DNA of 64,000 bases from IMG/VR virus record IMGVR_UViG_3300046705_000096, positions 1,348-65,347 of that record; one strand, 5' to 3'. This document shows, in pieces, positions 4,075-50,502 of this stretch. Position 1 is the first letter of the stretch; each line of letters begins with the position of its first letter. This stretch comes from a virus. Taxonomy: Duplodnaviria > Caudoviricetes. The notes beneath the pieces were generated by a model that was given only the letters and a program-made list of their open reading frames with translations, had not been told where the DNA came from and made no database searches. Position numbers and translations under genes: made by a program.

Positions 4075-4234
4075 GAATCTGCACCACAAGCTAAGTTATA
4101 AACAGAGGTAACTAATCAACTTACATCAATCACCAAGTCTCTACCCATCCAATATCGATAGAATTATCGTCCGGGAAGGGACACTACTGGGCCTGCTGGG
4201 ACGCCCCGGTGATTGGCGACGTGAGCCTAGCATC

Positions 4235-14330: not shown

Positions 14331-14373
14331 GACCAGCTTGCTCGGCCTCTGGTAACTAACAAACAAAGGGTTG

Positions 14374-34749: not shown

Positions 34750-37322
34750 TGTACTCTCCACTTCAGGTTTGCAATCATCACCATGTTCTTACCGTCCCGC
34801 TCCCGCGGGTAGTTGTCCGGCAAGCGTTTGGACACTTTCTTCTGACTCCACTGACTACGTTCATCGATTGGTAACCAGTTGATGAACCGTTCGTAAACCT
34901 CACTAAATCGCACGGAATCCCCGACCGAGTTCTCACCGAATTCCGTCAGGAACTGCAACAACGAATCCTGATTCATTTCTTCGGCGGCCCGTTTATTAGC
35001 CGTCTCAATTGCACAGAGTCGCATCCGACCGCAGTGCGCCGGTAATGTCATTCCCATCAAGGTTCGCATGAACGCTGAAGATTCCTCTCGGAGTCTTGCC
35101 ATCAACGTCGGCTTGGGGATGTCTTTAACCGGCGGTGGGACATTCAGGACGACGATCCGTGTGTCTCCGGGAAACACCGGGCAGGCGTCTCGCTTGTTTG
35201 CACACTGAATGAAGTGAAGCGTGTTCGGCTGTGGGTATGCGTCTGTCCGCATCTTGCGAATCCACAGCGTGCGACTCGTCACCCAGTCTTTGATCCTGTT
35301 GTAAATCTGCTCACCCGCGGTACTGAGGTCACGTTCTTCAACAACGGCAAGAATCGCGTTTGACAGTTCCCCGTTGAATTCTGTGTTGTTGGACAACGCT
35401 CGGTCTGCACTGCACACTCCGCGAGTCATCAACAACCCGATTGCTTCATGCAGAATTGACTTCCCGGTGTTCTGCCCGCCATACAGGAACAGATATGGCA
35501 GCGGCTCGAACGGTTCCCGCAGCATGCACGCAATCCAGAGCAGTCCGTAGTCATACCCGGTGCGTATGTTGTTGCCTTTCGCCCAACAAGATTCCTTCAG
35601 TGGCTGAGTCAGGTCTTGGAAGACATGCGATAGAACGGCGTCCCAATGTTCGTGAGGCCCGTCATCATCTGCGGGGGAAAAGGTGAATTGCGGCGCTCCG
35701 AGGTTCCACCGGCGATCGCCGGGGTACTCAGGTTGAAACGGCAAATTGACAAGGCCCCACGCGTCAACCACTGCCCCGCCCAAAATCTCTTCGGCTTCGG
35801 CTTTCTTGTGACCCAGTGAAACGAGATATGATCGAACATTGTCTTTGGATTTCCGGAACCAGCCAGTCTTCGTCTTCACTGCCCAACCGCCCTCATCGCC
35901 GCTGGATAGCACAAGGTGTCTGACAACTCCGTCGAAATCTTGTTTCGCGTCGTGTACGACAGCCCTGACTCCGAAAACGCGAGTGTACTTCCCGCGCTTC
36001 CGGACCCAGCCTTGCATCCCGTCAACTTCCTGCCCGACGACGTCGATCACGACACGTCCATCTTTTGCCGTCCGCATGACCGCGGTGTGGCCGTGGAGTG
36101 CCGGCAGTTTCACGCTGACCCCAAGTGAGGCGGCTGCCTCTTCGACCTTCCTCGGGTCGCTAAATGTGAATGTGCCCTCGTTGTCCGGGTCTTCCGTGCC
36201 TTGAAAGACGCGGCAAGCCGTTTCCAGATCGAGATCGCGGTTGTACGGGCACGACGTCCAGTCTGAGCCGTCCTGTTTCCAGAGCGGAGACTCGACGACA
36301 CCGGGGGAGAACCGGTAGACCAGCCACGACCCGCCCGGCTCAGGGAAGAGGAATGAATTCGGCGATCCGGGGTCTCCCCCACTGGACAACGTCTCGAATC
36401 GACCCCGCAGTCCGAGGTCTTCGTGGACTTTCTTCAGCGCAGATGTATGTGTCTGAAGCAAGTGATGGTCGGCAACCCAGATCGTTGAGAACCCTGTCAC
36501 CATCAAAGCGTCGATAACCGCATGATGCTCAGCGTCCAGAACCGTCGCCGGCCGAGAGTTTGCAAGTTGTTCGAAGGTGTCGTTAGCTCCGACGAGACGG
36601 ACCTTCGACCGCCGCCGGGCGACAACCTCAAGGTGGTCACGCCAGTTCAGAGGCAAGTCAGCTTCGGTCAACACCTGCGTTGACGCCTTGATGAGAGCAA
36701 GTCCGCCGGCATCCCATGCTTTTCTATGCCAGAACCACATATTTCCGCCACAAGCATCGACCTGCGCGGCGAAATCGAATCCCGACTCGCTCGACAACAT
36801 TCCGAGCACGGCACGGGCTAGAGCCGCGTGCTCGTTGTGGTTGGTCGTGGGAATGGCATCCAGCAAGACATACAGGTGGATGCCGCCGCCGCCTGTGGAT
36901 CGTCGAACTTCGACGAACGGGAAGTCCGACGCGACAGCCTGCACATTCCGCAGTTCCGAGTCGGTGATCCCGATGCCCGCGGCGTGCCCAGTGATGGTGT
37001 CAAAATCGAAACCGACCCAACGGCTGACACGATCTCTCCAATCCCAACCGGTCGAGCCAATGGCTTCGACGTAGAGGTCAAGCGGGAAGCGGATGGTCCA
37101 ATCGCTGAACTCCGGGTCGCTGCTGGCTTTACGGGGTATTCGGAAATTGTACCACTCGGTGATCCCATCCGACCAAGTATTCCGCTTCCCATCGACAGGC
37201 TCCCCGTCGCCGGCCAACACGTTGACCTGCGTTTCGAGGTCGATAGACCACCGGTCGAGCATCGCGGGGTCGTGATGCTCTTGATTTCGGATGAAGCTGG
37301 TGAGAGATTCGCTAACTCGCAT
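34746..37322 (-). CDS. primase-helicase (AEP-like N-terminus plus SF3/D5-like P-loop)
   Basis: RRSTGGGGIHLY primase-type motif; GGQNTGKS Walker A; VEE Walker B; CAN sensor. Confidence 0.85.
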   Translation of the reverse strand: MRVSESLTSFIRNQEHHDPAMLDRWSIDLETQVNVLAGDGEPVDGKRNTWSDGITEWYNFRIPRKASSDPEFSDWTIRFPLDLYVEAIGSTGWDWRDRVSRWVGFDFDTITGHAAGIGITDSELRNVQAVASDFPFVEVRRSTGGGGIHLYVLLDAIPTTNHNEHAALARAVLGMLSSESGFDFAAQVDACGGNMWFWHRKAWDAGGLALIKASTQVLTEADLPLNWRDHLEVVARRRSKVRLVGANDTFEQLANSRPATVLDAEHHAVIDALMVTGFSTIWVADHHLLQTHTSALKKVHEDLGLRGRFETLSSGGDPGSPNSFLFPEPGGSWLVYRFSPGVVESPLWKQDGSDWTSCPYNRDLDLETACRVFQGTEDPDNEGTFTFSDPRKVEEAAASLGVSVKLPALHGHTAVMRTAKDGRVVIDVVGQEVDGMQGWVRKRGKYTRVFGVRAVVHDAKQDFDGVVRHLVLSSGDEGGWAVKTKTGWFRKSKDNVRSYLVSLGHKKAEAEEILGGAVVDAWGLVNLPFQPEYPGDRRWNLGAPQFTFSPADDDGPHEHWDAVLSHVFQDLTQPLKESCWAKGNNIRTGYDYGLLWIACMLREPFEPLPYLFLYGGQNTGKSILHEAIGLLMTRGVCSADRALSNNTEFNGELSNAILAVVEERDLSTAGEQIYNRIKDWVTSRTLWIRKMRTDAYPQPNTLHFIQCANKRDACPVFPGDTRIVVLNVPPPVKDIPKPTLMARLREESSAFMRTLMGMTLPAHCGRMRLCAIETANKRAAEEMNQDSLLQFLTEFGENSVGDSVRFSEVYERFINWLPIDERSQWSQKKVSKRLPDNYPRERDGKNMVMIANLKWRVQ

Positions 37323-37348
37323 GCCCCCAGTACACGAGTCACGGGCAA
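37320..37348 (-). promoter_or_regulatory. putative leaderless phage promoter, copy 1 (primase)
   Basis: - strand TTGCC-cgtgactc-GTGTACT-gg-GGGC-ATG. Confidence 0.7.
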
Positions 37349-37383
37349 ATCTGCGCGTGATTCTGGGAAATTCTTGAAAGTTC

Positions 37384-37502
37384 CGGACGATCGGATGATT
37401 TCCCTACTATCCGTGTATGGGCTTTGTAGAGGTCTACAAAAAGGTCTTATACAAAGAAAAATAGGGAAATGGTCCGATCGTCCGCGCGACGCGTCGATCG
37501 AC
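37384..37502. repeat. dyad element copy B (candidate origin or recombination site)
   Basis: 23-bp inverted arms 37384-37406 and 37462-37484 (21/23 match) around a 55-bp spacer containing the TTTGTAGA-GG-TCTACAAA dyad. Confidence 0.85.
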
Positions 37503-37567
37503 GTAAGCAAATGATGACACTTCAACTAACAACGAATCTGAAAATCTGCTGACTTTTGCTAACAGAT

Positions 37568-37596
37568 TTGCCGACTGGGCGTGTACTGTGGGCATG
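37568..37596 (+). promoter_or_regulatory. putative leaderless phage promoter, copy 2 (ParB-like)
   Basis: TTGCC-gactgggc-GTGTACT-gt-GGGC-ATG. Confidence 0.7.
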
Positions 37597-38427
37597 CAGA
37601 TCGCCGTCGCAAACATTCGAGACCCAAAAGTTCTGCTGAGAACGGTAGACACCGGGTCGGTCGAGTTTCAGGAACTGATGGACTCGATTCACGATCGGGG
37701 GGTATTGAAACCTTTACTGGTCCGCCCATTTGGAGCTTTCTACGAACTGATCGACGGGATGCACCGCCTGATGGCTGTGCGGATGCTTGATCTTCTCACC
37801 GTCGATGTCAAGGTCATCGACTGCGACGACAACGACGCTCTACTTCTCCAACTGCAAGCAAACGCGATTCAGGTGCCGACGTCTCCGGTCGATTATGCGA
37901 GGCGGCTACGTCACCACATGGACCTCAACCCGACGCTGACGTTGTCGGGCTTAGCACGCGTCCTCAACAAGAGTACGCAGTGGGTCCGACAGATTCTCGG
38001 CCTACTCGGCCTCTCAGAGGATGCCCGTAAAGCCGTCGAGCGGGGCGAGATTTCCCTGCGGTCGGCCTACGAACTGCGAAAGCTGCCGCACCCCGATCAA
38101 GATCGGTGGTTGCCGCGGGCGGTTGTTTGCAGTGCGAAGCAATTCGTCGCCGAGATCGCTCCCGCTGTCCGTGCCTACGTCAACGGCCGGCAGCAGGGGC
38201 GATACGTTCGAACGAGTGGTGAGCCGAAGGCGTACCTTCGGTCTTTGAAAGAAATCCAACACGAATTGGAGAACGAAAATGAAGCGTCTGCTGTAATCAC
38301 CGTTGAGGGAGCAAAGAACTCGTTGGACGGATTCAAAGCAGCCCTCAAATGGGTACTGCACCTTGACAACTTCACTATCAGGAAACGCAATGAGCAAAAC
38401 CGCAACGAAACCGAAAGGGACGGCTGA
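37594..38427 (+). CDS. ParB/RepB/Spo0J-family protein 1
   Basis: ELMDSIHDRGVLKPLLVRP...LIDGMHRL ParB N-domain; HTH LSGLARVLNKSTQWV. Confidence 0.9.
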   Translation: MQIAVANIRDPKVLLRTVDTGSVEFQELMDSIHDRGVLKPLLVRPFGAFYELIDGMHRLMAVRMLDLLTVDVKVIDCDDNDALLLQLQANAIQVPTSPVDYARRLRHHMDLNPTLTLSGLARVLNKSTQWVRQILGLLGLSEDARKAVERGEISLRSAYELRKLPHPDQDRWLPRAVVCSAKQFVAEIAPAVRAYVNGRQQGRYVRTSGEPKAYLRSLKEIQHELENENEASAVITVEGAKNSLDGFKAALKWVLHLDNFTIRKRNEQNRNETERDG

Positions 38428-39097
38428 GCCGGAGACCGGCCTAACCGTCGCATCCTTGACCAACCTGCCTTCGACTGAATTCGCATCCAGCGATTACGAC
38501 GACCTGTCGAAACGCACCGAGTTCCTCGGCCGCGTGCAACTGTACTCGAAGGGCGAGGCTATCGACACCGGCAAGGTCCGTCCGGGTCACTATGGCATCC
38601 CCGAGAGCAAAGAGAAGATCATCGAACTCGGCAACAGCATCGACATCCTCGTCCTTGCTCGCCGACCGAAAGCGATGGACTTGTCCGACATCAAAGACAT
38701 CGTTACGGTCTATGACTCGGGCGATCCCGAGTTCCAGCGGATCAAAGAGACGTCGAGCAAATCGAACTCCGGCTGCATGTACGGCGTGTCGTTTCTGGTC
38801 TGCGAGCGCTCGACGGGTCGCTTCCTCGAACTGTTCTTTGGCGGCAAGTCGAGTCGCCCGGTCGCCGCGGAAGTCTATCCGTACATGCCGGCCGAGGACA
38901 AGGCTCCGCAGCCTTTGACGCTCAAGTCCAAGCTGGTCAAGAACAAAGCCGGCAACACGTGGTTCGTCCCCGTGGTCGTCCCGTGTTCTACGCCGATCGA
39001 CATCGACGCCGCCAAGGCAATCGATGAGATCAACAAATTCATCAACCCGCCGAAGACGGAAGTCGTCGAACAGCCGGCCAACCAGCGGACTCGATAA
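38390..39097 (+). CDS. putative ssDNA-binding or annealing protein
   Basis: beta-rich, KNKAGNTWFVP near the C-terminus, replication context; family uncertain. Confidence 0.45.
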   Translation: MSKTATKPKGTAEPETGLTVASLTNLPSTEFASSDYDDLSKRTEFLGRVQLYSKGEAIDTGKVRPGHYGIPESKEKIIELGNSIDILVLARRPKAMDLSDIKDIVTVYDSGDPEFQRIKETSSKSNSGCMYGVSFLVCERSTGRFLELFFGGKSSRPVAAEVYPYMPAEDKAPQPLTLKSKLVKNKAGNTWFVPVVVPCSTPIDIDAAKAIDEINKFINPPKTEVVEQPANQRTR

Positions 39098-39099
39098 CC

Positions 39100-39522
39100 G
39101 TGCAAGCTCTACTCATTCAATCGCCGCGCGTTGATTTCGCGAAATTCCTGCAAACGTGCGAGAAGTTGTTACCTCATCGCCCGGCCGCACTCTCTGATGC
39201 GAGTCCCCGGCGATTGAGTGAGTTGGAGCGATGGCTTTCTTGTCTGGCCGGCTTCCGTGCGACAGACGACATCGAGTCTGACGTTGCTAGGCACGCGATG
39301 CTCAGTGTTTTGATCTGGGCACCGCACGATCAACTGCGGGAATTCGTCGAGTTGTGCGGCCTGCCGCACATCACGACGCACACGGTGAACTTCGCATTCA
39401 GCGCGGCCGTTGTCAGCGGAACGTTGTACCACTGGCAGCGGTTGACGGTCGATCGTCCTCATTTGCAACCCCTCGTCGATGACATTCACGCACAATTCAA
39501 GCTCGCCGGGGTGCCGTTGTGA
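39100..39522 (+). CDS. hypothetical protein (faint ThyX-like pattern)
   Basis: H..LSVLI...VVSGTL..W; lacks RHR, so unlikely to be an active ThyX. Confidence 0.5.
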   Translation: MQALLIQSPRVDFAKFLQTCEKLLPHRPAALSDASPRRLSELERWLSCLAGFRATDDIESDVARHAMLSVLIWAPHDQLREFVELCGLPHITTHTVNFAFSAAVVSGTLYHWQRLTVDRPHLQPLVDDIHAQFKLAGVPL

Positions 39523-39631
39523 AACTGATTCTCTTCGACCTGCTCACCGTCGCGTTCCTTATTTCGATTCCGGCCGCCGGAGTCTTGTCCGTCGTCTGGT
39601 TGTCCGCCCTCATTCACGACAGGTTGTTCAA

Positions 39632-39853
39632 ATGACAAAGCCTAACCCTGATGATTACGCAGCCCTTAACACCACGTGGTTGCCGAGCATTGTGCAAACC
39701 CTTCAAGCTGCGGAAGAGATGAACAAGGTGCAAACCGAGTTCTTTATGGAGTTTGACGAAATTCGACTTTGGCACGGTGACGGGTGGAGTCCCGGATTCA
39801 TCGTAACCCGTGATGACGAGTTCGTGTTCGTACCGGATTACAAAGATCGATGA
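39632..39853 (+). CDS. hypothetical protein
   Basis: ATG 39632; ATGA overlap with the helicase gene. Confidence 0.55.
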   Translation: MTKPNPDDYAALNTTWLPSIVQTLQAAEEMNKVQTEFFMEFDEIRLWHGDGWSPGFIVTRDDEFVFVPDYKDR

Positions 39854-41730
39854 TCGAACAGACCCACTTCATCCTGCCCAGCGGAAAGCGTTACCGGAAG
39901 CACCCGGTCACGCTCCGACACGACGGCGACCAAATCTGGTTCGTCGAGTCGCCCTTCGCGTTGAAGGATGAGATCAAGGCAATGCAGGGTGCGAAGTGGC
40001 ATGGCTTCGACGACGACCCAATCAAGCAGTGGTCGATCAAGGATACGCCGCGGAACCGGTTCAACCTCGGCTACCTCAAAGGCGAGAATGTCTACGAGTG
40101 GTTTGACCGACGTGTTGAAGATCGAGGGTTCTCAGACTTCGGCGGTGAATTCAGTCTGATGCCGCATCAGATAGAGATGGCGAGTTCGGCACTCACCCAC
40201 CACTACCAAATTTGGGCAGTGGAAATGGGCGCGGGAAAATCTGCCGCAGCGCAAGCAGTAATCGAGAAATCGGGTAAGCGTAATTGGCTCTGGGTCGGAC
40301 CAAAGAATACGCTACCGACTATTCAATTCGAGTTCGAGAAGTTTTCGTTCCCCTTTTCAAATTTCAACGTCCGATTCATCAGCTTCGAACAACTCGTCAA
40401 GGCCATTGCTGAAGGTCTTGAGACGCCTGACGGGATGATCGTTGACGAAGCGTCAAAGGTCAAGACAGCAACGGCCCAGCGTTCGAAGGCTGTGCAGAGC
40501 GTGGCGGACCGCATCCGCGACAAACACGGTTACGACGGGTTTGTTATCCTGATGACCGGTACGCCGGCAACGAAATCACCGACTCATTGGTGGAAGCAAT
40601 GCGAAATCGCGTGGCCGGGGTTCCTGCGTGAGGGGAGTCCGCAGTCGTTGGAGAAGCGACTGGCATTCATGGTTGCGGAAGAGTATGCGGCCGGCGTCTT
40701 CAACAAGCGGGTCGGATGGCGAGACGACGAGCGGAAGTGCAACGTCTGTGGCAAGTTAAGCGCCGAACATACAATTCCAAACGTGCCGGCGAGTAAATGT
40801 GCGTCTGTTGGACCGGACGAACATTACTTTGAACCGTCTGTCAACGAGATTGCCTTACTGTACGAGCGCCTGAAGGGACTCGTAATCATCAAGAACAAGA
40901 AAGACTGCATCTCGCTCCCGGACAAGCGATACCGCACCATCCGGTGCAAGCCGTCGTCGTCTATTCTCCGTGCCGCGAAGACTTTGGCAGATTCCGCCCC
41001 GAACACCATCACTGGCTTGACATGGCTGCGTGAACTCTCAGACGGGTTCCTATACCGAGATGAGAAAGACGGCGTCCAGAAGTGTGACCACTGCACCGAA
41101 GGTAAGGCATTGGACTGGCAGCGAATTGACGGTGAGTTCGAGCAGGTCGAAATCACCTGCCCGAAGTGTAACGGGGCAATGGAAGTACCGCGGGTTGTTC
41201 GGGTCTCGAAAGAAATCCCCTGTCCGAAGATCGACGAACTCAAGAACCTGTTGCTTGAGTGCGACGAGACGGGGCGGATTGTGATCTTTGCAGGCTTCAC
41301 CGGCTCGATCGACCGAATCACCGCCGAAGTGCTGAAAGCCGGCTGGGACGTCTGGCGGTGCGACGGGCGGGGTCAATCGATCACGACCAAAGACGGTCAG
41401 TTGAGTCTCGACCCCCTTCGGTATTGGAAGAATTGGGACAATCCGCGGGTTGCATTTGTCGCCCACCCGAAGTCGGGCGGATACGGACTGACGTTGACCG
41501 AGTCTCGAATGGCGGTGTTCTACAGCAACGTCCATGAGAGTGAGGTCCGGGTGCAAGCCGAAGATCGGATTCACAGGAAAGGGATGGACGAGAATCTGGG
41601 TTGCGAGATCGTGGACTTGATTCACCTACCAACCGACGAGCGTGTGTTGGAGATCGTCCGAGAGGACCGAAGGATTGAAATGATGACTATGGGCGAGATC
41701 ACCAAAGACATCGATTGGGAGAGTGAATAA
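39850..41730 (+). CDS. SF2 (SNF2-like) helicase
   Basis: VEMGAGKS, IVDEAS, MTGTP, GGYGLTL and QAEDRIHRKG motifs. Confidence 0.9.
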   Translation: MIEQTHFILPSGKRYRKHPVTLRHDGDQIWFVESPFALKDEIKAMQGAKWHGFDDDPIKQWSIKDTPRNRFNLGYLKGENVYEWFDRRVEDRGFSDFGGEFSLMPHQIEMASSALTHHYQIWAVEMGAGKSAAAQAVIEKSGKRNWLWVGPKNTLPTIQFEFEKFSFPFSNFNVRFISFEQLVKAIAEGLETPDGMIVDEASKVKTATAQRSKAVQSVADRIRDKHGYDGFVILMTGTPATKSPTHWWKQCEIAWPGFLREGSPQSLEKRLAFMVAEEYAAGVFNKRVGWRDDERKCNVCGKLSAEHTIPNVPASKCASVGPDEHYFEPSVNEIALLYERLKGLVIIKNKKDCISLPDKRYRTIRCKPSSSILRAAKTLADSAPNTITGLTWLRELSDGFLYRDEKDGVQKCDHCTEGKALDWQRIDGEFEQVEITCPKCNGAMEVPRVVRVSKEIPCPKIDELKNLLLECDETGRIVIFAGFTGSIDRITAEVLKAGWDVWRCDGRGQSITTKDGQLSLDPLRYWKNWDNPRVAFVAHPKSGGYGLTLTESRMAVFYSNVHESEVRVQAEDRIHRKGMDENLGCEIVDLIHLPTDERVLEIVREDRRIEMMTMGEITKDIDWESE

Positions 41731-42005
41731 TGGACGAACACCGCGGACACCCAATCGAGAAGTGTTATGGTCGCTGGGTCTATTCAGACACCAGAGTACC
41801 TGTCGAACGTCAGAAGAACAGAGTCACTCACCTGATGCACGCGTGCCAAATCATCGGATACAAGCACCCCGATCTAACAATCGCCCAGTGCTTCGAAGAT
41901 TGCTACAACGAATTCTGCCGGAAGACACACGTATTCCCCGAATCGGAAGGGGCACTCGACAACCGGCTGAACGCTGAAGAGTCCGTTTTCAAATCCCAAC
42001 AGTAA
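41730..42005 (+). CDS. hypothetical protein
   Basis: 91 aa, stop-start coupled. Confidence 0.55.
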   Translation: MDEHRGHPIEKCYGRWVYSDTRVPVERQKNRVTHLMHACQIIGYKHPDLTIAQCFEDCYNEFCRKTHVFPESEGALDNRLNAEESVFKSQQ

Positions 42006-42014
42006 GAGGTTGAC

Positions 42015-42806
42015 ATGAAGAGACGACGAGCATTGGTATTCGCGTTGTGCGCGATGGCGATTGCAACTGCGTTTGTGACCGCCAGAGTGATGTACCCGCC
42101 CAAGACGAAGACGGTGATTGAAGAACTGCATAACGCAAGTGTGGTCATTCGAACCAATGGCTCAACCGGGAGCGGCACGATCTTCAATCGCGGCGGTCGG
42201 TCATTTGTATGGACGGCAGGGCACGTTGTTGACGGTGGGATCGATGGCGTCACTGTGATCCACGGCATCGATAAGTACAAGGCCCGTGTCATCAGATACA
42301 GCAGCATCGGCAACGGCCGTGACCTTGCACTGCTTGAAGTGGACGGCTTCATTGAATGCAAGCCGATCCACTTTCGAAAGTCAGACGTAAAGATTGGGAT
42401 GCTGGTGACGCACATCGGAAGCATCTTCGGAACAGAGAACGAACGCAGCGTCAGTCGGGGAACAGTTGCGTCACCATCCCGGTTTTTTCGAATCGGCCAA
42501 GCTCACAACTGGTTTGACCAGTACGACATCACGGCGTACCCCGGATGTTCTGGCGGCGGACTTTTCAGCGGCGATCAGTACGTCGGAATGCTCACGCTCG
42601 GACGCCGCGGCACTGAGGCAGTCCACTTCTGCGTCCCGTCGAGTGAGATCGTGAAGTGGGCAATCGCTGCCGGCGTCCCGTGGGCTGTCGATTACACGTC
42701 GCCCGTTCCCTCGGAGATCATCCCACTGTTCGAGCGGAGTGACACGACCTTCGGGAAGAGTCGTAACCTTTCGTGCGGATTCAAAACTATGATCGGGAAG
42801 AAATGA
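42015..42806 (+). CDS. exported trypsin-like serine protease
   Basis: Signal or TM N-terminus; TAGH, DLALL and PGCSGG give a full His-Asp-Ser triad. Confidence 0.9.
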   Translation: MKRRRALVFALCAMAIATAFVTARVMYPPKTKTVIEELHNASVVIRTNGSTGSGTIFNRGGRSFVWTAGHVVDGGIDGVTVIHGIDKYKARVIRYSSIGNGRDLALLEVDGFIECKPIHFRKSDVKIGMLVTHIGSIFGTENERSVSRGTVASPSRFFRIGQAHNWFDQYDITAYPGCSGGGLFSGDQYVGMLTLGRRGTEAVHFCVPSSEIVKWAIAAGVPWAVDYTSPVPSEIIPLFERSDTTFGKSRNLSCGFKTMIGKK

Positions 42807-42985: not shown

Positions 42986-43839
42986 AGTACCCAGCGGAAA
43001 CCATTGCTGCCGTCAAGCGGAGTCTATCCGCGACGAACGGTAAGCGACAAGAGCAGATTGCCGCGGAGCATTGCGTGAGCCGGTCGTTAGTCTCCGATAT
43101 CTGGACCGGCCGCTGCCATGCGGATGAGATGTCTCGCACCACTCTGCACCCTGACGCGTCGTCGCGAGTTCTCGTGATCGGCGACACGCACTGCCCCGGT
43201 ATGCGGAAAGGGTACATCGATTTCCTGAAGCGGATCGCTGATGGTTACTCAGTCAATCGGGTCGTCCATATCGGTGACCTCGTTGACTGGGCGTCGATCT
43301 CGTACCACGAAAAGATGCCAACCCTCAGCAACGCGTCGGCTGAGTACAAGAAAGCCAAAAAACAGGTTTCGAAGCTGGTGAAGGCGTTCCCGCAAGCCGA
43401 CTGGCTGATCGGCAACCACGACGCGCTGACATCGCGACAAGCTCACACCGCGGGCCTTCCAACGGAAATCCTGCGGGACTATGGAGACCTCTGGGACGTC
43501 CCTTGGACGGTCCATCCTCGGTTCGCCAAGCTGACCATCGACAACGTGATTTACTCCCACGGTGACAGTGGAGCCGCCGGAAAGGGGGCAGCGTTCCGGC
43601 AGGCCAAAGACAACTTCCGCTCGACGGTGATCGGCCACTTTCATTCGCAGGCGGGGGTCAACTGGTGGGCCAACCCAGAGTATCGCGTCTTCAGCATGTC
43701 GGTCGGCTGCGGTATTGACGCCGCAAAGCTGCAATTCGAGTACGGCCGGAAGTTCCCGTCGAAGCCGATTCTGGGATGCGGAGTCGTGATCGACGGTCGC
43801 AAGGCTTACTTCGAACCGTGGCTCTTGAAAAGCAGGTGA
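42982..43839 (+). CDS. HTH plus calcineurin-like metallophosphoesterase
   Basis: QIAAEHCVSRSLVSDI HTH; GDTH, GDLVD, GNHD, HGD and GHFH motifs. Confidence 0.85.
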   Translation: MKYPAETIAAVKRSLSATNGKRQEQIAAEHCVSRSLVSDIWTGRCHADEMSRTTLHPDASSRVLVIGDTHCPGMRKGYIDFLKRIADGYSVNRVVHIGDLVDWASISYHEKMPTLSNASAEYKKAKKQVSKLVKAFPQADWLIGNHDALTSRQAHTAGLPTEILRDYGDLWDVPWTVHPRFAKLTIDNVIYSHGDSGAAGKGAAFRQAKDNFRSTVIGHFHSQAGVNWWANPEYRVFSMSVGCGIDAAKLQFEYGRKFPSKPILGCGVVIDGRKAYFEPWLLKSR

Positions 43840-43843
43840 ATGT

Positions 43844-44050
43844 GTGAACCAAAGACAGTCCGTACTACAAGCCCTGACCGAAGCTGGCGACAAGGGTCTG
43901 TCGATGGACGAACTCATTACCGAAGTCGCCGCTCTCACGGGGAATACACCGACTGTCGGGAGCGTGTTCGTTGCCGTCGCAAAACTGAGAATCCATGATG
44001 AGTACACGATCCCACTCTACGACGGGCGATACCGAATCACGCCTGACTGA
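43844..44050 (+). CDS. small winged-helix protein
   Basis: GLSMDELITEV...SVFVAVAKLR...GRYRI. Confidence 0.55.
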   Translation: MNQRQSVLQALTEAGDKGLSMDELITEVAALTGNTPTVGSVFVAVAKLRIHDEYTIPLYDGRYRITPD

Positions 44051-44828
44051 GTATGACGCGATCCCGATTCCGGTCACGGAGATTTACTTCGACAGTGCGT
44101 TCAATTGCCGCGGAGCGTTCACGCCCGACTCTGTCCGAGAACTTGCGGACTCAATCAGAAATACCAGACTTCAGCAGCCGATTGTTGTGCAACCGGCTGC
44201 TGAAGTCATCTCCATACCCGAGGGCTATGGATATCGGCTCGTCTGTGGTCATCGCCGGTTCATCGCCGTCACGCTGTTCCTGAAGTGGGAGACGATCCCC
44301 GCGATTGTCCGAACCGGGCTGGACGAGTTGGCCGCCCGTATCGACAACCTCAAAGAGAATCTTGACCGCGTCTCCCTGAACCCGCTTGAGGAAGCTCGCG
44401 CGATTGACGCAGCGTTCTCGGGCCAGTCGAACTACGCCGTCGCCAAGCAACTCAACCGATCGACCGGGTGGGTTTCGGATCGTAGGGCCTTGTTGACTTT
44501 GCCCGACACGTTGCAGCAGCAGGCCGCGGCCGGCTACTTCACGTGGCGGGACATCCGAGACATCAGCGTGGCTGATAATCCGATTATTTTTGCACAAAAG
44601 ATACATTCGGTGCGCAGAAAAGACAAGTCGGCGTGTACCAAGGGTCGTAAGGCAGCCACGCGGACGCGGCCGGAAATCAAGTCGATGATCGATGCGTTGA
44701 TCCGACTGAACATGGATGGCTTTGTCACACGGTTGTTGGCATGGTCTGCCGGCTGGTTGAGCACCGAGGAAGTGATGAGCGAAGCCCATGCAATCCACAA
44801 ACGGCGAAAAGGTAGTGCTCGAAATTGA
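43995..44828 (+). CDS. ParB/RepB/Spo0J-family protein 2 (start uncertain)
   Basis: ELADSIR...QQPIVVQP...LVCGHRR...ENLDRVSLNPLEEA; HTH. Confidence 0.9.
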   Translation: MMSTRSHSTTGDTESRLTEYDAIPIPVTEIYFDSAFNCRGAFTPDSVRELADSIRNTRLQQPIVVQPAAEVISIPEGYGYRLVCGHRRFIAVTLFLKWETIPAIVRTGLDELAARIDNLKENLDRVSLNPLEEARAIDAAFSGQSNYAVAKQLNRSTGWVSDRRALLTLPDTLQQQAAAGYFTWRDIRDISVADNPIIFAQKIHSVRRKDKSACTKGRKAATRTRPEIKSMIDALIRLNMDGFVTRLLAWSAGWLSTEEVMSEAHAIHKRRKGSARN

Positions 44829-45115
44829 CAAGAAGCGAGTCATTCGATGGATACGGTACGACGCAATTGAATACCCGATTGTCTCGCTTCCCGTTCTTCC
44901 GGGAGACATCGTGATATTCACACCCCCGCAACCCACAAACGACGACGCGACATGCTGACACTTTTGAACTACCTCATCGACGCCGTGCTGGCGATTTGGT
45001 TTGGGATGATTATCGCTGTGATCGCCTTTGGCGTTCCACTCAGTGTTGGTTTCCTACTGAGTCACCTGCTCCTCAAACTCTACCGAAAGATCAAACCGGA
45101 CCAAAGGCCGCCACT

Positions 45116-45517
45116 ATGAAACTCGAAGGCAGACTCACGATCCTTGGCGACGACGAAGGTGTGACGATCGAGGTTGAAGACAGCGACGCGTCAACGACAT
45201 TCCTGAGAATCGAACTGACGCCAGAGCAATTCTGTCAAGCGGCTCTCGGGCGTCTCGCGTCCTTGAGATGTGAGTTGGAAGTCGTCGGGTTGGACCATGT
45301 CGGCAAGCGGATGGAGTTAGATGAGATTGTGTTTCCAATGCCCGACAGATTCAACGACGTCTACGACCGCGAACAACTGTCGAAGGCCGCCGCCGAAATT
45401 GCGAAGGAAGTCTGCCCTGCGGGATGGTCCCCAGCTACTTACTTCGGGTCACAGGATTCTTTCAAGCGTGAGGCCGGCAGGTTGTACGCACGGACGACGA
45501 TCCGCAGGTGGGTGTGA
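45116..45517 (+). CDS. hypothetical protein
   Basis: 133 aa, typical codon pattern for this arm. Confidence 0.6.
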   Translation: MKLEGRLTILGDDEGVTIEVEDSDASTTFLRIELTPEQFCQAALGRLASLRCELEVVGLDHVGKRMELDEIVFPMPDRFNDVYDREQLSKAAAEIAKEVCPAGWSPATYFGSQDSFKREAGRLYARTTIRRWV

Positions 45518-45568
45518 CATGAACTACTTCGAATTCCTTTTCGTCCTGATCCTGCTGCACGCGTTCAA

Positions 45569-47956
45569 ATGATAGAATCTGACATCCCGCAAATCAGGCA
45601 CGAACTCGCCATCGGTGAGACCGTCGTTCTCGATTCGGAAACGGCCGGATTACATTCGATGATGGTTCTGCTTCAGTTCGCCGTCGATGACGGGCCGATC
45701 CATCTCGTCGATATCTGGAAGGTGCCCGTCTGGTGGACGTTGGAACTGCTGAAAGCGTTCAGCCGAAAGACGATCGTCGGCTTCAATCTTTCGTTTGACG
45801 TCTTCCACATTTGCAAGCTCTACACCATCTGGCGGCTGCTGCCGGCCGACTGGATTCCCGAAGAACACATCGAAGAGATCGCCGAGATTGAGCCACAAGG
45901 GTGCGACGGCCCGTGCTGGAAACCGCGGTCGGCTCTGGACCTGATGTTGCACGGGCGGAAGACGTCGCTCCAAAGCCTGATGGCTCGGTCAGACATTCGC
46001 GTCCGCCGGGTGCCCACCGTTCTCGCAGGTCCGCTCGCGGAAGAACTCGAACGCCGGGTCGAGATCGACGACATCTACTTCGCCCGGTCGGCGAACCCGG
46101 ACGCCCCTCGCTGGGCGGTCTACGAGAACGACAAAGACCCAGAATTCAGCGACGTCGTCCTGAAGTTCAAGGCGGCCGGCGGTTTGAAGTTCATTGCCGA
46201 ACACGTGTTGGGCTACAAACCGAAGTACCACTTCAAAGACGTCGAACCACAAACCCGGCCTTATGAGTTGGGGTACGCCCCCTACGCAAAAGCCGTGTCG
46301 TCGCGTGAAAAGGGTTGGGCTGTCGAGACAGACAAGGGTACGAAGTACGCATGGCCGGCTATAATCCAGCAGCACATCAACCATTGGGCGACGAATAAAG
46401 AAGCCAGAGAATATGCTCTCGATGACATCGTCTACACCCGAGGTCTCTACGAACATTGGAACAAGCCCGACCACGGGGACGACGATTCTGTTCTCGCTTG
46501 TGCTGTCGCTGCAATCCGCTGGCGGGGGTACATCGTTGATCTTGACGGTATCCGGGAGTGCCGGCGCGAGGCAGAAGGGATCGTCGCTTCCGCCCCTTGC
46601 GACCTGAATAAGCCGGATGAAATCCGAGCCTATCTCGGAGAGTGTCTCGATGAGCTTGAAGCCCTCACCATCGACGCCAGTGTTGCCAAGCCGATCTTGA
46701 AGCTGATGACGAGTTGGATGATCGATGAGGAAGAGTGCAGTAAGTGCTGCGGCGGCGGGTGCCATCGGTGCGGGTTCACCGGGAAGACGACAGCCGGCGA
46801 GCATCCGGTTGTTTCGCGGGTGGTCGAGATTCTGAAGTGTAAGTCGAAACTCAAAGAGATCAACTTGTTGCGAAAGCTCGAAGTCGCCGGCCGATTTCAT
46901 GCTGACTTCAAGGTCATCGGAACACTGTCGTCGCGAATGTCGGGAAGTTCAGGGTTAAACGCACAAGGCGTACCCGCTGATAACCGCATTCGCAAGAACT
47001 TTATCTTCAAGCGTGAAGGTGAAGAACTATCGCTGGGGGATTTCTGGAGTTTTGAAGTCTGTCTGGCGGAATCCGTGTACAACGACGATCAGCTTCGAGC
47101 CGACCTGCTGAGCGGGAAAAAACTACACGCTCTCTTTGCAATGGCACTGTTCCCCGGCATGACTTATGAGGACGTGATCGCTTCTGCTGGGACGGAAAAT
47201 GACGCCTACACCAAGGGAAAACAAGGGGTCTTCGGCGGCATCTTCTACGGCGGTAACGAGAATACGTTGGTCAAGCGTCTCGGCGTAACGCCGGAGAACG
47301 CCGCCGCGGCCTTCCAAGAGTTCAGCGGTCGTTACCCCGGCGTCGGCGTCCGCCGCAAGCAAATTACCAACATGTTCAGTTGCTTGCGACAGCCGGCGGG
47401 GATCGGGTCCGCGATCTACTGGCATGAACCCGCCGACTCGATCGACAACGGACTGGGCTTCCACCGGTACTTTACACTGGAAAACAAAATCTGCCGGGCA
47501 CTGTTTGACCTCGCTCGCTCTGTCCCCTCGGAGTGGCGGAAGATCAAGGTCAAGGTCGTCCGGCGGGACCGGCTTCAGACCGCGAGTGGTGCAGTGGCCT
47601 CAGCGTTGTATGGGGCCGCATTTGCAATTCAGGGCTGCAACATCCGGGCGGCGGCCAACCACGAAATTCAGTCACGCGGGGCGGTCATCACAAAATACGT
47701 CCAACGTAAAGTCTGGGACTTGCAACCCGCCGGCGTCCATGAGTTCGTCGTCGCCCCGTGCAACATCCATGACGAAATTGTTACTCCGGTGAAGCCGGAG
47801 TATGTTGATCGAGTGACAGAAGTCATCCGCGAGAGCGTTGAAAACTTCCGGCCGTCTGTTGCATTGATAGGAATCGACTGGTGCCCACGGGCAGAATCGT
47901 GGGCTGAGAAGAAAGCAGGCGGCGTATCCATTAGACCCGAGGGGATGGAACGGTGA
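45569..47956 (+). CDS. polA: family A DNA polymerase with 3'-5' exonuclease
   Basis: LDSETAG ExoI, FNLSFD ExoII, YALDD ExoIII, GTLSSRMS, DFWSFEV motif A, K...F...YG motif B, IHDEI motif C. Confidence 0.9.
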   Translation: MIESDIPQIRHELAIGETVVLDSETAGLHSMMVLLQFAVDDGPIHLVDIWKVPVWWTLELLKAFSRKTIVGFNLSFDVFHICKLYTIWRLLPADWIPEEHIEEIAEIEPQGCDGPCWKPRSALDLMLHGRKTSLQSLMARSDIRVRRVPTVLAGPLAEELERRVEIDDIYFARSANPDAPRWAVYENDKDPEFSDVVLKFKAAGGLKFIAEHVLGYKPKYHFKDVEPQTRPYELGYAPYAKAVSSREKGWAVETDKGTKYAWPAIIQQHINHWATNKEAREYALDDIVYTRGLYEHWNKPDHGDDDSVLACAVAAIRWRGYIVDLDGIRECRREAEGIVASAPCDLNKPDEIRAYLGECLDELEALTIDASVAKPILKLMTSWMIDEEECSKCCGGGCHRCGFTGKTTAGEHPVVSRVVEILKCKSKLKEINLLRKLEVAGRFHADFKVIGTLSSRMSGSSGLNAQGVPADNRIRKNFIFKREGEELSLGDFWSFEVCLAESVYNDDQLRADLLSGKKLHALFAMALFPGMTYEDVIASAGTENDAYTKGKQGVFGGIFYGGNENTLVKRLGVTPENAAAAFQEFSGRYPGVGVRRKQITNMFSCLRQPAGIGSAIYWHEPADSIDNGLGFHRYFTLENKICRALFDLARSVPSEWRKIKVKVVRRDRLQTASGAVASALYGAAFAIQGCNIRAAANHEIQSRGAVITKYVQRKVWDLQPAGVHEFVVAPCNIHDEIVTPVKPEYVDRVTEVIRESVENFRPSVALIGIDWCPRAESWAEKKAGGVSIRPEGMER

Positions 47957-48216
47957 TTGATGACATTTTCAATCGACCGCCCGAAGGTCAACTGACTGTA
48001 TTGAATACGGTACTGACAATCTCAAAACGATTTGATGGTTTTCTCTCACGAGAGTTTCCGGGTAAACGCGCATCAAATTCAGAGATTCGTCGGTGGATCG
48101 CTAATGGGTCAGTGTCCATCAACGATGTCCGCTATAAGGATTTGCACGCAATCGTTGATTGGCCGTTGACGGAATTCTCATTGTTCCCTAACGGTCGGAA
48201 GGTCACTCTGCATTGA
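47953..48216 (+). CDS. stand-alone S4-like RNA-binding domain protein
   Basis: RFDGFL...SNSEIRRWIANGSVSIND matches the S4 pattern by eye. Confidence 0.55.
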   Translation: MIDDIFNRPPEGQLTVLNTVLTISKRFDGFLSREFPGKRASNSEIRRWIANGSVSINDVRYKDLHAIVDWPLTEFSLFPNGRKVTLH

Positions 48217-48398
48217 ACTTCAACATCTACTTCGACCTTCAGGGTCCAGCCGGGACGGCTACTCGCATCCCGAACAAGAACAATCCCGTCACCGTTGAGC
48301 GACTATCATCAGTGCTCGACGGACTGTCGTCTCAAATTGACCAGTGGCCGTTTGGCCTCGAAGTGATCGGTGTCCATATTGAAAAGGTAGTTGAATGA
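48213..48398 (+). CDS. hypothetical protein
   Basis: Stop-start coupled 61-aa ORF. Confidence 0.5.
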   Translation: MNFNIYFDLQGPAGTATRIPNKNNPVTVERLSSVLDGLSSQIDQWPFGLEVIGVHIEKVVE

Positions 48399-48586
48399 GA
48401 ATCCCGAAAGATCGTGCTGTAGCTCTCGTGGGCATCCCCGGTCGGATACGGACGTTCCTTCCGATTCCGAAGGACGCGTTGACCGACCAGAAGAACCCCC
48501 GCGAGCATTGCATCGAGTGCGAGTCTCCAATCCCGCCGGGGAAGCCCGGCCGTGTTTGCAAACCCTGTCGAGAGGACAAGCTGTGA
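48395..48586 (+). CDS. small C4 Zn-finger protein (TraR/DksA-finger-like)
   Basis: CIECESPIP...CKPC. Confidence 0.5.
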   Translation: MRIPKDRAVALVGIPGRIRTFLPIPKDALTDQKNPREHCIECESPIPPGKPGRVCKPCREDKL

Positions 48587-49005
48587 GATTACTGAAGATT
48601 CTCTGGGCACTGCCCAACACGTTGCTCGGGCTGTGCCTGCTGCCCTTGATTCTCTTGTCTGGGGGCCGTGTGCGACTGTTCCTCGGCTGTGTCGAGATGG
48701 TCGCCAACGGTTGGATTCGCCGCCTCTTCCACCGGAATGAGATTTTGGCGGTCACCCTCGGTCACGTAATCATCGGAAAGTCAGGGCCGTGCCTCTTTAG
48801 CTGCCGAAGCCACGAACACGTCCACGTGCGGCAGTGCGAGCGTTGGGGTCCGTTATTCCTACCGGCGTACTTCTACTTTGCATTGCTGATGAGGGTGATT
48901 GGGAAAGACCCGTACTGGGATAATCCCTTCGAACTAGACGCTTTTGAGAACGCCGGGCACGACGTAGCCCACCCTGACGACTTCGCTGAGCACCAGTGCA
49001 AATGA
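48583..49005 (+). CDS. membrane-anchored HExxH metallopeptidase-like protein
   Basis: N-terminal TM; AVTLGHVI...HEHVHVRQ...NPFE.DA. Confidence 0.7.
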   Translation: MRLLKILWALPNTLLGLCLLPLILLSGGRVRLFLGCVEMVANGWIRRLFHRNEILAVTLGHVIIGKSGPCLFSCRSHEHVHVRQCERWGPLFLPAYFYFALLMRVIGKDPYWDNPFELDAFENAGHDVAHPDDFAEHQCK

Positions 49006-49373
49006 AACCCGAAGAGAAGATTCGCAACGACCTTCGGGAGTTCTTGCAGGTCCGCGGCTGGCTGGTCGAGATCATGCACGGGAACATGTACCAGTCCGGA
49101 ATTCCCGACGCATACCTCTTTCGTCGGGACGCCGGGCCGAGGTGGGTCGATTTCAAAACCCCGAATCGCTACTCATTCACACGGGCACAACGTCGTAAGT
49201 GGCCCCAGTGGGAGAGGCACGGCGTGGGAATCTGGGTGCTCACGGCTGCCACTCAAGAGGAATACGACAAGCTGTTCGGCCCGCCCAATTGGCGTGATTA
49301 CTGGAAAGATTCGTGGGGCGTTCTTGACCCGCAAGACGCGATAGATAAGGCAATCGATGAGGCAAGTGAATGA
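49002..49373 (+). CDS. VRR-NUC-like PD-(D/E)xK nuclease
   Basis: EEKI...SGIPD...WVDFK...FTRAQ. Confidence 0.8.
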   Translation: MKPEEKIRNDLREFLQVRGWLVEIMHGNMYQSGIPDAYLFRRDAGPRWVDFKTPNRYSFTRAQRRKWPQWERHGVGIWVLTAATQEEYDKLFGPPNWRDYWKDSWGVLDPQDAIDKAIDEASE

Positions 49374-49890
49374 AGAATGGCGATCTGTTGTCGGATGGGA
49401 AGGGTTATACGAGGTCAGCGACCTTGGACGCGTAAGATCATTGGATCGGATCGTGTCTTATAGAGACGGGCGAGTGCGAAAGTATTCAGGAAAGGTGCTA
49501 TGCCCCGGAACATTGAAACATGGGTACTTGCTTGTCGTGCTGAGTGATGCCGGAAGGAAGGAATCACGAACAGTACATTCCATTGTTGCAGAAGCATTCT
49601 TAGGAACACGTCCACCCGGAAAGCAAATCCGACATGGTCCTGACGGCCCTTCAGTAAACACAGTTAAGAATCTGTGTTATGGAACGGTTTCCGAAAACCA
49701 AATGGACCGCCACAGAGACGGTACAGCGAATATAGGCACACGGAACGGACAATCGAAGCTGACGCCTGATGATATTGTTACGATCAGACAGTCCGACGAA
49801 AATCAACGCGATGCTGCTGCACGTCTGAAAGTGTCTCAATCCTTGATTAGCCGCATTCGATCAGGCGAAGTCTGGAAACACATCAAATGA
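49357..49890 (+). CDS. NUMOD4-HNH homing endonuclease
   Basis: EEWRSVVGWEGLYEVSDLGRVRS; VHSIVAEAFLG...H...N...NL.Y; C-terminal HTH. Confidence 0.9.
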   Translation: MRQVNEEWRSVVGWEGLYEVSDLGRVRSLDRIVSYRDGRVRKYSGKVLCPGTLKHGYLLVVLSDAGRKESRTVHSIVAEAFLGTRPPGKQIRHGPDGPSVNTVKNLCYGTVSENQMDRHRDGTANIGTRNGQSKLTPDDIVTIRQSDENQRDAAARLKVSQSLISRIRSGEVWKHIK

Positions 49891-50477
49891 AACATCTCAA
49901 GAAATACCAACTGTGGGGCTGCATGGCCACGTCGTTCGCGATGGCCTACGACATGACGCTCGACGAGTTCTACCAGAGCGTCGGGCACGACGGCTCGGAG
50001 ATCGTGTACCCCGAACTGCCGGAACCAATGAGACGTCGCGGGGTACACCCCAACGAGTGCGTACTTGTCGGATTGCAGAACGGGTGCGCCGTCACACCCT
50101 TTGAAGTGCATTCGCAGCTTCAAGCCTCACAAGACATCAATGCCCTGTTGGACATCGGGATATCGCGTTTCCACAGAAAGTACGCGCGGAAGACTGTCGA
50201 ACAATCCAAGACGGCATTGAAGAACATCCTACAAAGCACGATCCAAGAAATCTGTACGCCCCTCGATTCGAACTGGCTCGACTTCAAGTATTTCATTTGC
50301 AGACGGCGGGGCGTTCTCGAAGGTTGGGCCGGCAAGTGCAAACACGCTGTCGCCTTTGATCGCGGAACGATCTACGACCCGGACGGCCCGCAATATCCCT
50401 ACGACCGTGCCGAGTGTGAGCGGCGAGGTTTCTTCGGAAATAGACTCTGGATTGTGGATAAAGTCGCGCAGAATTGA
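49887..50477 (+). CDS. C39-like (papain-fold) cysteine peptidase
   Basis: Q..GCMATSFAM (Cys), HAVAF (His), IYDP (Asp). Confidence 0.6.
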   Translation: MKHLKKYQLWGCMATSFAMAYDMTLDEFYQSVGHDGSEIVYPELPEPMRRRGVHPNECVLVGLQNGCAVTPFEVHSQLQASQDINALLDIGISRFHRKYARKTVEQSKTALKNILQSTIQEICTPLDSNWLDFKYFICRRRGVLEGWAGKCKHAVAFDRGTIYDPDGPQYPYDRAECERRGFFGNRLWIVDKVAQN

Positions 50478-50502
50478 CGCGTCGCCGTGTACTACGGGCA
50501 TG
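50474..50502 (+). promoter_or_regulatory. putative leaderless phage promoter, copy 3 (HTH gene)
   Basis: TTGAC-gcgtcgcc-GTGTACT-ac-GGGC-ATG. Confidence 0.7.

Follow-up and report, generated by a model that had tools for sequence, protein, structure and literature searches.

Three near-identical 38-base signals, each running directly into a start codon, were found in the genome of a temperate phage whose host probably belongs to the Planctomycetota. On balance, they seem to be phage-specific early promoter cassettes, probably with a built-in operator, that would give rise to leaderless mRNAs. The shared pattern, CAGAWTTGMC-N7-CGTGTACT-NN-GGGC-ATG, was present in three copies in the DNA analyzed (a stretch of 64,000 nucleotides, hereafter the window), leading into the start codons at 37322 (minus strand), 37594 (plus strand), and 50500 (plus strand). 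The sites and the genes behind them are as follows:

Site 1, head of the primase operon: 37320..37357, minus strand; C−35 at 37357, CAGATTTGCC at 37353-37344, CGTGTACT at 37336-37329, and GGGC-ATG at 37326-37320, the A of the ATG being 37322.
Site 2, head of the ParB operon: 37559..37596, plus strand; C−35 at 37559, CAGATTTGCC at 37563-37572, CGTGTACT at 37580-37587, and GGGC-ATG at 37590-37596.
Site 3, head of the unit starting with the 61-aa HTH gene: 50465..50502, plus strand; CAGAATTGAC at 50469-50478, CGTGTACT at 50486-50493, and GGGC-ATG at 50496-50502.
Primase/helicase (DUF5906), 858 aa: 34746..37322, minus strand; first gene of the leftward unit.
ParB-like protein, 277 aa: 37594..38427, plus strand; first gene of the rightward unit.
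Three-helix HTH protein of the GerE/LuxR/sigma-region-4 type, 61 aa, an orphan: 50500..50685, plus strand.

Scanning the window with the full pattern and no mismatches returned exactly three matches (37348-37320 on the minus strand, 37568-37596 and 50474-50502 on the plus strand). No additional match appeared in the window when up to three mismatches were allowed (0.01 expected from shuffles), and the whole virus record of 65,347 nt held no copy beyond the three. The initial annotation had described an exactly spaced motif at three operon starts, and this was borne out; every copy in the window and in the full record lies at a start codon. Its two weaker look-alikes, at 4482-4502 and 14338-14357, dissolved into background, as they matched fewer than 15 of the 24 invariant columns, not above chance. 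These columns extend from −35 to +3 and include C−35, CAGA at −31 to −28, and C−14, so that the similarity is wider than the motif first described; columns −21 to −15, −6, and −5 are unrelated among the three sites. The runner-up position in the window matched 16 of the 24 columns, the same background level as in shuffled sequence, and GTGTACT alone occurred 10 times where about 8 were expected. Because the copies are exact, none is degenerate, and conserved blocks are interleaved with unrelated columns, the pattern suggests that individual positions are under selection, and not that the copies arose by recent duplication. In site 3, the stop codon (TGA) of ORF 49887-50477 falls within CAGAATTGAC, as does half of a GACGCGTC palindrome, an element separate from the cassette and recurring at 10 places. 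This site stands only 22 nt behind a co-directional ORF, and read-through transcripts are possible there.

The motif regions were identical in the strains covered by contigs of four public DNA runs; elsewhere, the phage strains in these runs differ by replaced segments. Among the public runs listed as containing this stretch, none was an RNA run. A search of IMG/VR for the exact motif gave only one unrelated, AT-rich chance match. Nor is it a frequent exact motif in the sampled host genomes: it was absent from 301 sampled Planctomycetota genomes, and in four host-like MAGs, matches occurred at chance level and lacked the upstream box.

All three sites head transcription units and are oriented with their genes. 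Alignments with primase homologues begin at residue 2 and those with ParB homologues at residues 3-8, and the next in-frame ATGs lie far inside the genes (codon 21 in the primase, codon 29 in ParB), so that the three ATGs are genuine start codons. Neither GGAG nor GAGG was present at Shine-Dalgarno distance before any of them, in agreement with the initial annotation; such sequences are present at many other genes of the phage. The hexamer TGTACT lies at −12 to −7 from the ATG in all three sites, and the gap between hexamer and ATG is identical, as a leaderless promoter requires. In leaderless genes of Actinobacteria and Deinococcus-Thermus, the −10 element is found about 12 nt before the start codon (PMC3160421); the three sites likewise combine a hexamer at −12 to −7, an AUG start, and no Shine-Dalgarno sequence, although the hexamer sequence deviates. 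The proposal that these are promoters of leaderless genes is supported by their place at unit heads, by the correspondence to promoter-like positions in relatives, and by the hexamer at the leaderless −10 place (PMC3160421); transcription is predicted to start at these sites.

The relatives, whose primases share 40-50% identity with that of this phage, comprise prophages and viral contigs from Planctomycetota; the closest ones in viral, genome, and metagenome collections reached no more than 50% (primase) and 42% (ParB) identity. The divergent ParB/primase pair is kept at eleven related loci, and at eight of the nine loci examined, a phage-specific segment of 17-79 nt occurs as an inverted pair at the gene-proximal intergenic ends; at the ninth, L005, the repeats are far from the gene starts. 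Three relatives (G006, G007, and G008) carry exactly three copies each, of which two lie in the divergent region and the third is distant, and a reversed-pattern control gave zero matches in them. The third copy of the relatives is located at the sigma2/packaging arm. Once anchored, their copies can be read as a −35-like hexamer (TGACCA, GTCACA, or GGAACA), 18 nt, and an nAnnnT hexamer, followed by a leader of 15-57 nt, usually with a Shine-Dalgarno-like sequence. Because the promoter-like elements precede a variable leader, the motif of the relatives is a signal in the DNA that does not depend on the start codon. Copies agree within one phage and differ between phages. Compared with the relatives, whose hexamers keep A−11, the loss of the leader and the G at −11 are peculiar to this phage. 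The window cassettes are most likely a local variant of a three-promoter layout common to related phages; a point against this reading is that their motif was matched to those of the relatives by position and frame rather than by strong sequence identity.

Set against these relatives, the window sites fit a normal frame of −35, 17-nt spacer, and −10, with C−35 to CA−30, TGTACT at −12 to −7, and 6 nt between the hexamer and the ATG. The "−26/−10" promoter class suggested in the initial annotation was not supported by this comparison: since the sites share the −35/−10 frame of the relatives, the TTG box (the "−26 box") is probably the conserved 5' part of the spacer and not a displaced −35. Compared with the sigma70-type −35 (like TTGACA, 16-18 nt upstream of the −10), the hexamer at 17 nt reads CTAACA in site 2 (4/6) and CGCGCA in sites 1 and 3 (2/6), with C−35, C−31, and A−30 invariant. 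TGTACT keeps T−12 and T−7 and has G at −11 in all three sites; none of them has a sigma70-type −10 (TAnnnT, with A−11). Two points speak against the reading as promoter cassettes: the G replaces the base most needed by housekeeping sigma factors, and only 2-4 of 6 positions of the weak −35 agree. An alternative register, TACTNN (compare TACTGT in two relatives), would place the start beyond the ATG. The promoter scan found no sigma70-consensus promoter elsewhere in 37250-37650 or 50200-50600.

Other promoter types and registers were also considered. With CAGAWT as the −10 and a 19-nt leader, the upstream −35 and TGn are both absent, and with TTGMCN as the −35, the start would fall about 10 nt inside the genes, contradicting the conserved N-termini. 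On reading the sequences, the spacings of sigma54, sigma B/F, and Bacteroidota −33/−7 patterns did not fit. An archaeal TATA/BRE reading of the −26 box was rejected, the relatives being Planctomycetota prophages and the box not being AT-rich. Promoters of T7-like single-subunit polymerases are contiguous sequences of about 20 nt, starting at GGG. No such polymerase gene was found, the large ORFs being primase, helicase, DNA polymerase A, and probable tail proteins; PF00940 had no match in the phage record or in four relatives, a weak absence, as the control genomes were also without a match.

We propose that the cassettes would each drive one transcription unit: leftward for the primase, rightward for ParB/replication, and rightward again for the unit that opens with the HTH gene. 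The normal frame would be bound by host RNA polymerase and would consist of a weak −35 (CTAACA or CGCGCA, −35 to −30), a 17-nt spacer with a conserved 5' part (GAWTTGMC), and the −10-like CG+TGTACT at −14 to −7. Transcription would begin at the A of the ATG (C−1/A+1), or within GGGC no more than 2-4 nt before it, and the leaderless mRNAs would then be translated without a Shine-Dalgarno sequence. The cassettes are probably also recognized by a DNA-binding protein of the phage, whether a repressor, an activator, or a sigma factor, because the agreement within the phage far exceeds what the polymerase needs and the copies differ between phages. As for the host, Shine-Dalgarno-like signals in a host-like MAG peaked at −14 to −10, most of its long ORFs had no such signal, and there was no clear TAnnnT peak at −12 (n=193, rough gene calls), so that leaderless starts are not evidently habitual in the host lineage, within the low power of this comparison.

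The motif might instead be an operator only, with other promoters lying upstream and leadered mRNAs without a Shine-Dalgarno sequence, which we consider unlikely. Copies identical within the phage and divergent between phages are typical of immunity operators, site 3 overlaps the recurring palindrome, and the scarcity of Shine-Dalgarno-like signals in the host-like MAG fits leadered mRNAs of this kind. However, an operator needs no identical distance to the ATG, and the motif always points with its gene and has no dyad or direct-repeat symmetry; by inspection, the invariant columns lack the symmetry of a dimeric repressor operator. Upstream of the sites, no consensus promoter was found, and the motif of the relatives itself contains −35-like and nAnnnT elements at 18-nt spacing.

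The initial annotation named two candidate readers of the motif, and these bear on a further possibility. The HTH gene is listed above; the remaining features are the following:

ECF-like sigma region 2 without region 4, 116 aa: 4617..4967, plus strand; candidate motif reader.
Short-spacer look-alike upstream of ORF 4617: 4565..4583, plus strand; GAGAATCGAC followed directly by GCGTACT, with TACTTT (TAnnnT) at 4578-4583; possibly an ordinary promoter of the sigma2/packaging arm.

It was considered unlikely that the sites are unusable by host sigma A and are read by the ORF 4617 sigma2 protein together with the ORF 50500 HTH protein as a split sigma factor, the latter providing the upstream contacts, giving leaderless mRNAs. 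ORF 4617 keeps the hallmarks of region 2 (Sigma70_r2, E=2.5e-7) and has no room for region 4, and the HTH protein folds as a GerE/LuxR/sigma4-type domain (Sigma70_r4_2, E=0.06; GerE, E=0.18; Foldseek matches to GerE/NarL-type domains at E>=0.065); both proteins are orphans. The G at −11 speaks against sigma A, and the second block opens with CGT (−14 to −12 in all three sites), the ECF −10 hallmark (PMC8103513), but the ECF −35 element AAC stands at the right distance in site 2 only. Neither the sigma2-only gene nor the HTH gene was present in five related phage records, which show nAnnnT hexamers at these promoters; this phage alone has both G−11 and a sigma2-like gene, a circumstantial association; yet the three whole records searched among those five still carry the three-copy layout, which thus exists without either gene. 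Through the TAnnnT look-alike, ORF 4617 could be expressed first, by the host. Against this, ORF 4617 heads the packaging arm, the usual place of late activators, whereas the sites drive replication genes; the HTH gene is itself driven by site 3; and a protein with sigma region 2 alone might just as well serve as a decoy, blocking host sigma. A stricter form, in which the nAnnnT early promoters of the relatives were replaced by a private type (G−11, CGT-led, leaderless) that is opened only by the 116-aa sigma2 protein with the 61-aa HTH protein at the upstream box, seems to us quite improbable. If true, it would be a split two-gene phage sigma factor making leaderless mRNAs in a Planctomycetota host.

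Action of the conserved sequence in RNA, either as a translational operator around the AUG to which a phage protein binds (cf. T4 RegA) or as a processing site giving leaderless mRNA, is very unlikely. The start codon and the four preceding bases are indeed conserved at a fixed distance, but conservation extends 35 nt upstream in three separated blocks, and the homologous motif of the relatives is separated from the AUG by a variable leader and hence not tied to it. No shared fold was found (z = −1.13, −0.55, and +1.53, with differing structures), and Rfam gave no match in the window. That the copies are functionless duplication or recombination remnants at module borders is hardly credible: mosaicism is a feature of phage genomes, and replaced segments distinguish the strains in the public runs, but columns that have fully diverged alternate with blocks preserved without change, all three start codons stand in exact register, and the layout is kept in relatives despite different sequences.

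The reading as phage-specific early promoter cassettes yields, through the comparison with relatives, a testable promoter set: three per phage, phage-specific in sequence, in a layout common to a temperate phage group. In one lineage, all three promoters would jointly have lost the leader and undergone a change of the key base at −11. Almost no published information was found on transcription signals of Planctomycetota or their phages, and this phylum has few genetic tools. If the sigma2-only protein reads the sites, it would be a minimal phage sigma factor outside the T4 group; if not, the sites would still be of use, both as defined promoters of a phage and as probable immunity operators.

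Among known systems, OL/PL and OR/PR of lambda are near-identical early promoter/operator regions of a temperate phage. Like them, the cassettes occur in few copies at the heads of early units, include a divergent pair, and are identical within the phage and different between relatives; unlike them, the cassette has no dyad symmetry, its repressor is only putative, and it runs into the start codon. T4 late promoters, which serve late genes, consist of a −10 element only (TATAAATA) and are read by gp55, a region-2-only sigma factor, and SigO-RsoA of Bacillus subtilis is a two-subunit sigma factor. The phage here likewise has a gene for a sigma region 2 that lacks region 4, together with a non-canonical −10; in contrast to the gp55 system, its sites have conserved upstream blocks and precede replication genes, and ORF 4617 is a candidate reader only. 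In T4 middle promoters, a MotA box at −30 replaces the −35. The window sites similarly have a conserved box nearer the −10 than a normal −35, but this box falls within a normal 17-nt spacer, and no MotA/AsiA-like genes were seen. ECF sigma promoters have AAC at −35 and CGT at −10 (PMC8103513), about 16-17 nt apart; CGT opens the −10-like block of every window site, and in site 2, AAC lies 16 nt upstream, whereas sites 1 and 3 have CGC in its place and ORF 4617 lacks the region 4 that reads AAC. Leaderless bacterial genes (PMC3160421) show a genome-wide loose signal, TANNNT with a near-invariant A, whereas the window has three long identical cassettes of one phage with TGTACT, G taking the place of the A, and its host lineage has no clear leaderless signature. 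With these genes and with lambda PRM-cI, the window sites share a hexamer starting 12 nt before the ATG, the lack of a Shine-Dalgarno sequence, the AUG start, and the C−1/A+1 at the predicted start.

The pattern TTGMC-N8-GTGTACT-NN-GGGC-ATG, which the initial annotation had read at three operon starts, was matched exactly three times in the window, with no further place at three or fewer mismatches, and shuffled sequences gave 0.01 matches. The full virus record (65,347 nt, of which the window covers 64,000 nt) contained the identical three matches and none in addition. Each copy ends in a start codon:

37322, minus strand: site 1, ATG of the primase gene
37594, plus strand: site 2, ATG of the ParB gene
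50500, plus strand: site 3, ATG of ORF 50500, a 61-aa HTH gene

When the sites were aligned on the A of the ATG (+1), 24 invariant columns were counted: C-35, CAGA (-31 to -28), TTG (-26 to -24), C-22, CGTGTACT (-14 to -7), and GGGCATG (-4 to +3); nothing was common to the three sites at -21 to -15, -6, and -5. Scanning both strands with these columns gave 24/24 at the three sites. Because the best other place (16/24) only matched shuffled sequence, the motif is a closed family of three without graded weaker members. Two weaker look-alikes proposed earlier fell below 15/24, and GTGTACT on its own occurred at chance frequency. The observation of three matching sites is solid.

Alignments of primase homologues (40-50% identity) begin at residue 2 of the ORF starting at 37322, and those of ParB homologues at residue 3-8; the next in-frame ATGs, at codon 21 (primase) and codon 29 (ParB), are both inside conserved sequence. 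The reported absence of a Shine-Dalgarno (SD) sequence held, with GGAG/GAGG at SD distance in none of the three genes, while many other genes of the phage have one. Sites 1 and 2 point outwards from a 271-nt divergent primase/ParB region (37323-37593), and site 3 follows a co-directional ORF at a distance of 22 nt, its upstream box containing the stop codon of that ORF. No consensus sigma70 promoter was found around the divergent region or site 3.

The palindrome GACGCGTC (often CGACGCGTCG), a candidate parS or operator, was found in 10 places, against about 1.3 expected in the window:

3553-4536: five copies in the non-coding stretch before ORF 4617 (4617-4967, plus strand)
37487-37496: between ParB and primase
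50476-50483: inside site 3
43153; 45185; 52015: further copies

In three whole records of related phages (G006, G007, and G008) and two loci of relatives (L004 and L023), one or two motif copies are preceded, at about 60-70 nt, by a similar TTGACGCGGCG element. The genome's two divergence points share a 69-nt segment as an inverted repeat (94%; 3949-4017 and 37438-37506), and the copy at 37384-37484 is itself a dyad, with 23-nt arms (37384-37406 and 37462-37484) and an A/T-rich center. Placed between the two divergent promoters, it may serve as an origin or in regulation. Downstream of the primase, ORF 33964-34761 contains about thirteen to nineteen tandem 18-nt units (34316-34648; six-residue repeats). 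A 46-nt element with GTCAAATGGAATT at its end occurs three times within 2300-3091, at intervals of about 370 nt. Two of the copies coincide with or lie close to the starts of small ORFs (2201-2437 and 2721-3029), an arrangement resembling a small family of tandem genes. Two neighboring short ORFs on the minus strand (63402-63596 and 63652-63876) are spanned by a perfect 127-nt direct repeat (63594-63720 and 63874-64000) and have the same start codon and the same 40 bases upstream of it.

ParB and primase stand back to back in eleven related loci. In eight of the nine examined, an inverted pair of a phage-specific 17-79-nt segment lies at the gene-proximal ends of the intergenic region, so that each gene has the same motif directed at it; L005, the ninth locus, has its repeats well away from the gene starts. 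Whole-record pattern searches of G006, G007, and G008 gave exactly three copies each (reversed-pattern control, 0). Two of these belong to the divergent region, and the third, at a distance of 31-35 kb, precedes an orthologue of window ORF 4964-5509 (34-44% identity over the full length). Two MAG prophages have the pair only. The layout of two copies plus one is conserved and the sequences are phage-specific. The motif loci of the relatives were as follows:

L028, L033, L035: third copies
L029, L031, L034: divergent pairs
L004, L023, L012: further loci

Anchored on their shared hexamer, the relatives' copies show a -35-like hexamer, which in G006-G008 is TGACCA, GTCACA, or GGAACA. The 18-nt spacer that follows is T-rich in its 5' half and includes a phage-specific 7-8-mer with CC or GC at its end. 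Next come the downstream hexamer (TACTGT, AACCTT, or TACCTT, all nAnnnT; TGATGT in L012) and a leader, 15 to about 57 nt long and usually with an SD-like sequence. Given this composition and the variable leader, the relatives' motif resembles a normal bacterial promoter that carries additional phage-specific conservation, and its place is not fixed by the start codon. Read in that frame, the window sites have C-35 to C-31A-30 (CTAACA or CGCGCA), a 17-nt spacer beginning GAWTTGMC, TGTACT at -12 to -7, NNGGGC, and ATG. The '-26/-10 promoter class' proposed earlier is not needed, since its '-26 box', judged against this frame, corresponds to a conserved 5' part of the spacer; as far as the alignment tells, it is not a misplaced -35 box. 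The ParB copy of G006 has AATTGC at that place. Two features remain unusual after re-reading, the G at -11 and the lack of a leader. The leader is missing at all three window sites, with identical spacing, and transcription would start on C-1/A+1, seven positions after the hexamer. We consider it most likely, with moderate confidence, that the three sites are copies of a phage early promoter/operator cassette predicted to give leaderless mRNAs.

The alternative register TACTNN matches TACTGT of two relatives; it is less likely because it would put the start at the G of the ATG, at the cost of the conserved N-termini. A pure operator is weakened as an explanation, as the motif has no symmetry, its orientation follows the genes, its distance to the ATG is exact, and the relatives' motifs have promoter-like content. 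An RNA-level element is likewise weakened, there being no fold common to the three sites and variable leaders among relatives.

The record is a temperate tailed phage with an integrase (58575-59570), and also encodes large terminase, portal, family A DNA polymerase, helicase, and ParB. Since the primase relatives include prophages in MAGs labeled Planctomycetota, Thermoguttaceae, and Pirellulales, a Planctomycetota host is likely. Near-identical DNA is present in soil and sediment metagenomes from several studies; strains from other soil runs are identical over 37100-40926 and diverged or replaced at 44300-46170 (including a 306-nt deletion at 44809-45116), a mosaic variation that starts shortly before the DNA polymerase gene and extends into it.

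None of 301 sampled Planctomycetota genomes gave the motif, and in four host-like MAGs it matched only at chance level; it is no common host signal. Long identity within a phage combined with divergence between phages suggests that a phage-encoded factor reads the motif alongside the polymerase. That the putative readers are the sigma-region-2-only ORF 4617 and the HTH protein seems doubtful. The G at -11, a CGT-led -10 block, and a sigma2-like gene occur together in this phage, relatives without the two genes have nAnnnT hexamers, and CGT in the -10 element is an ECF hallmark (PMC8103513); we regard this conjunction as a coincidence of interest, not as evidence. Against the proposal, five related phage records do not have either gene, and the layout of three promoters persists in the three of these that were searched as whole records; it is therefore independent of both. 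ORF 4617 reads convincingly as an orphan ECF-like region 2. The orthologous gene downstream overlaps its stop, which leaves no room for a region 4. The orphan 61-aa product was modeled as a three-helix HTH (pLDDT 74) whose closest matches are GerE/NarL/LuxR-type domains, with weak similarity to sigma region 4, and would belong to the sigma4/GerE class by fold only. A gene for a private single-subunit polymerase was not found, in a search whose control genomes likewise gave no match.

For ORF 4617, a search of 1.8 billion representatives gave only two relatives, both of them distant, full-length ECF sigmas. Its stop overlaps the start of ORF 4964-5509 (Cys/His-rich, 181 aa), which is conserved in relatives; there it is the first gene of the packaging arm, immediately after the third promoter copy. 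The sigma2 gene has the look of an insertion at this promoter. Four copies of a ~32-nt unit, each ending in the palindrome described above, lie at 4358-4581 and 3532-3563. The last (4550-4581) has GAGAATCGAC joined straight to GCGTACT, like site 3 minus 8 nt, and supplies TAnnnT 34 nt before ORF 4617.

A rough survey of one host-like MAG (193 long ORFs) showed an SD peak at -14 to -10 and no clear TAnnnT peak at -12, so the leaderless claim gains nothing from the host side. Leaderless starts are probably not a host habit, which makes the triple leader loss in this phage more notable. ORF 3064-3216 (start at 3216, minus strand; 50 codons) has TATACT at -12 to -7 and then six bases up to its ATG. 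This spacing equals that of the three sites, but the base at -11 is the canonical A. The match may mark a fourth leaderless start, of ordinary type, or have arisen by chance, with about 2.5 TAnnnT hits expected among 161 candidate starts. In leaderless bacterial genes, the -10 consensus TANNNT lies about 12 nt before the start codon (PMC3160421), and the window hexamer stands at this reported position.
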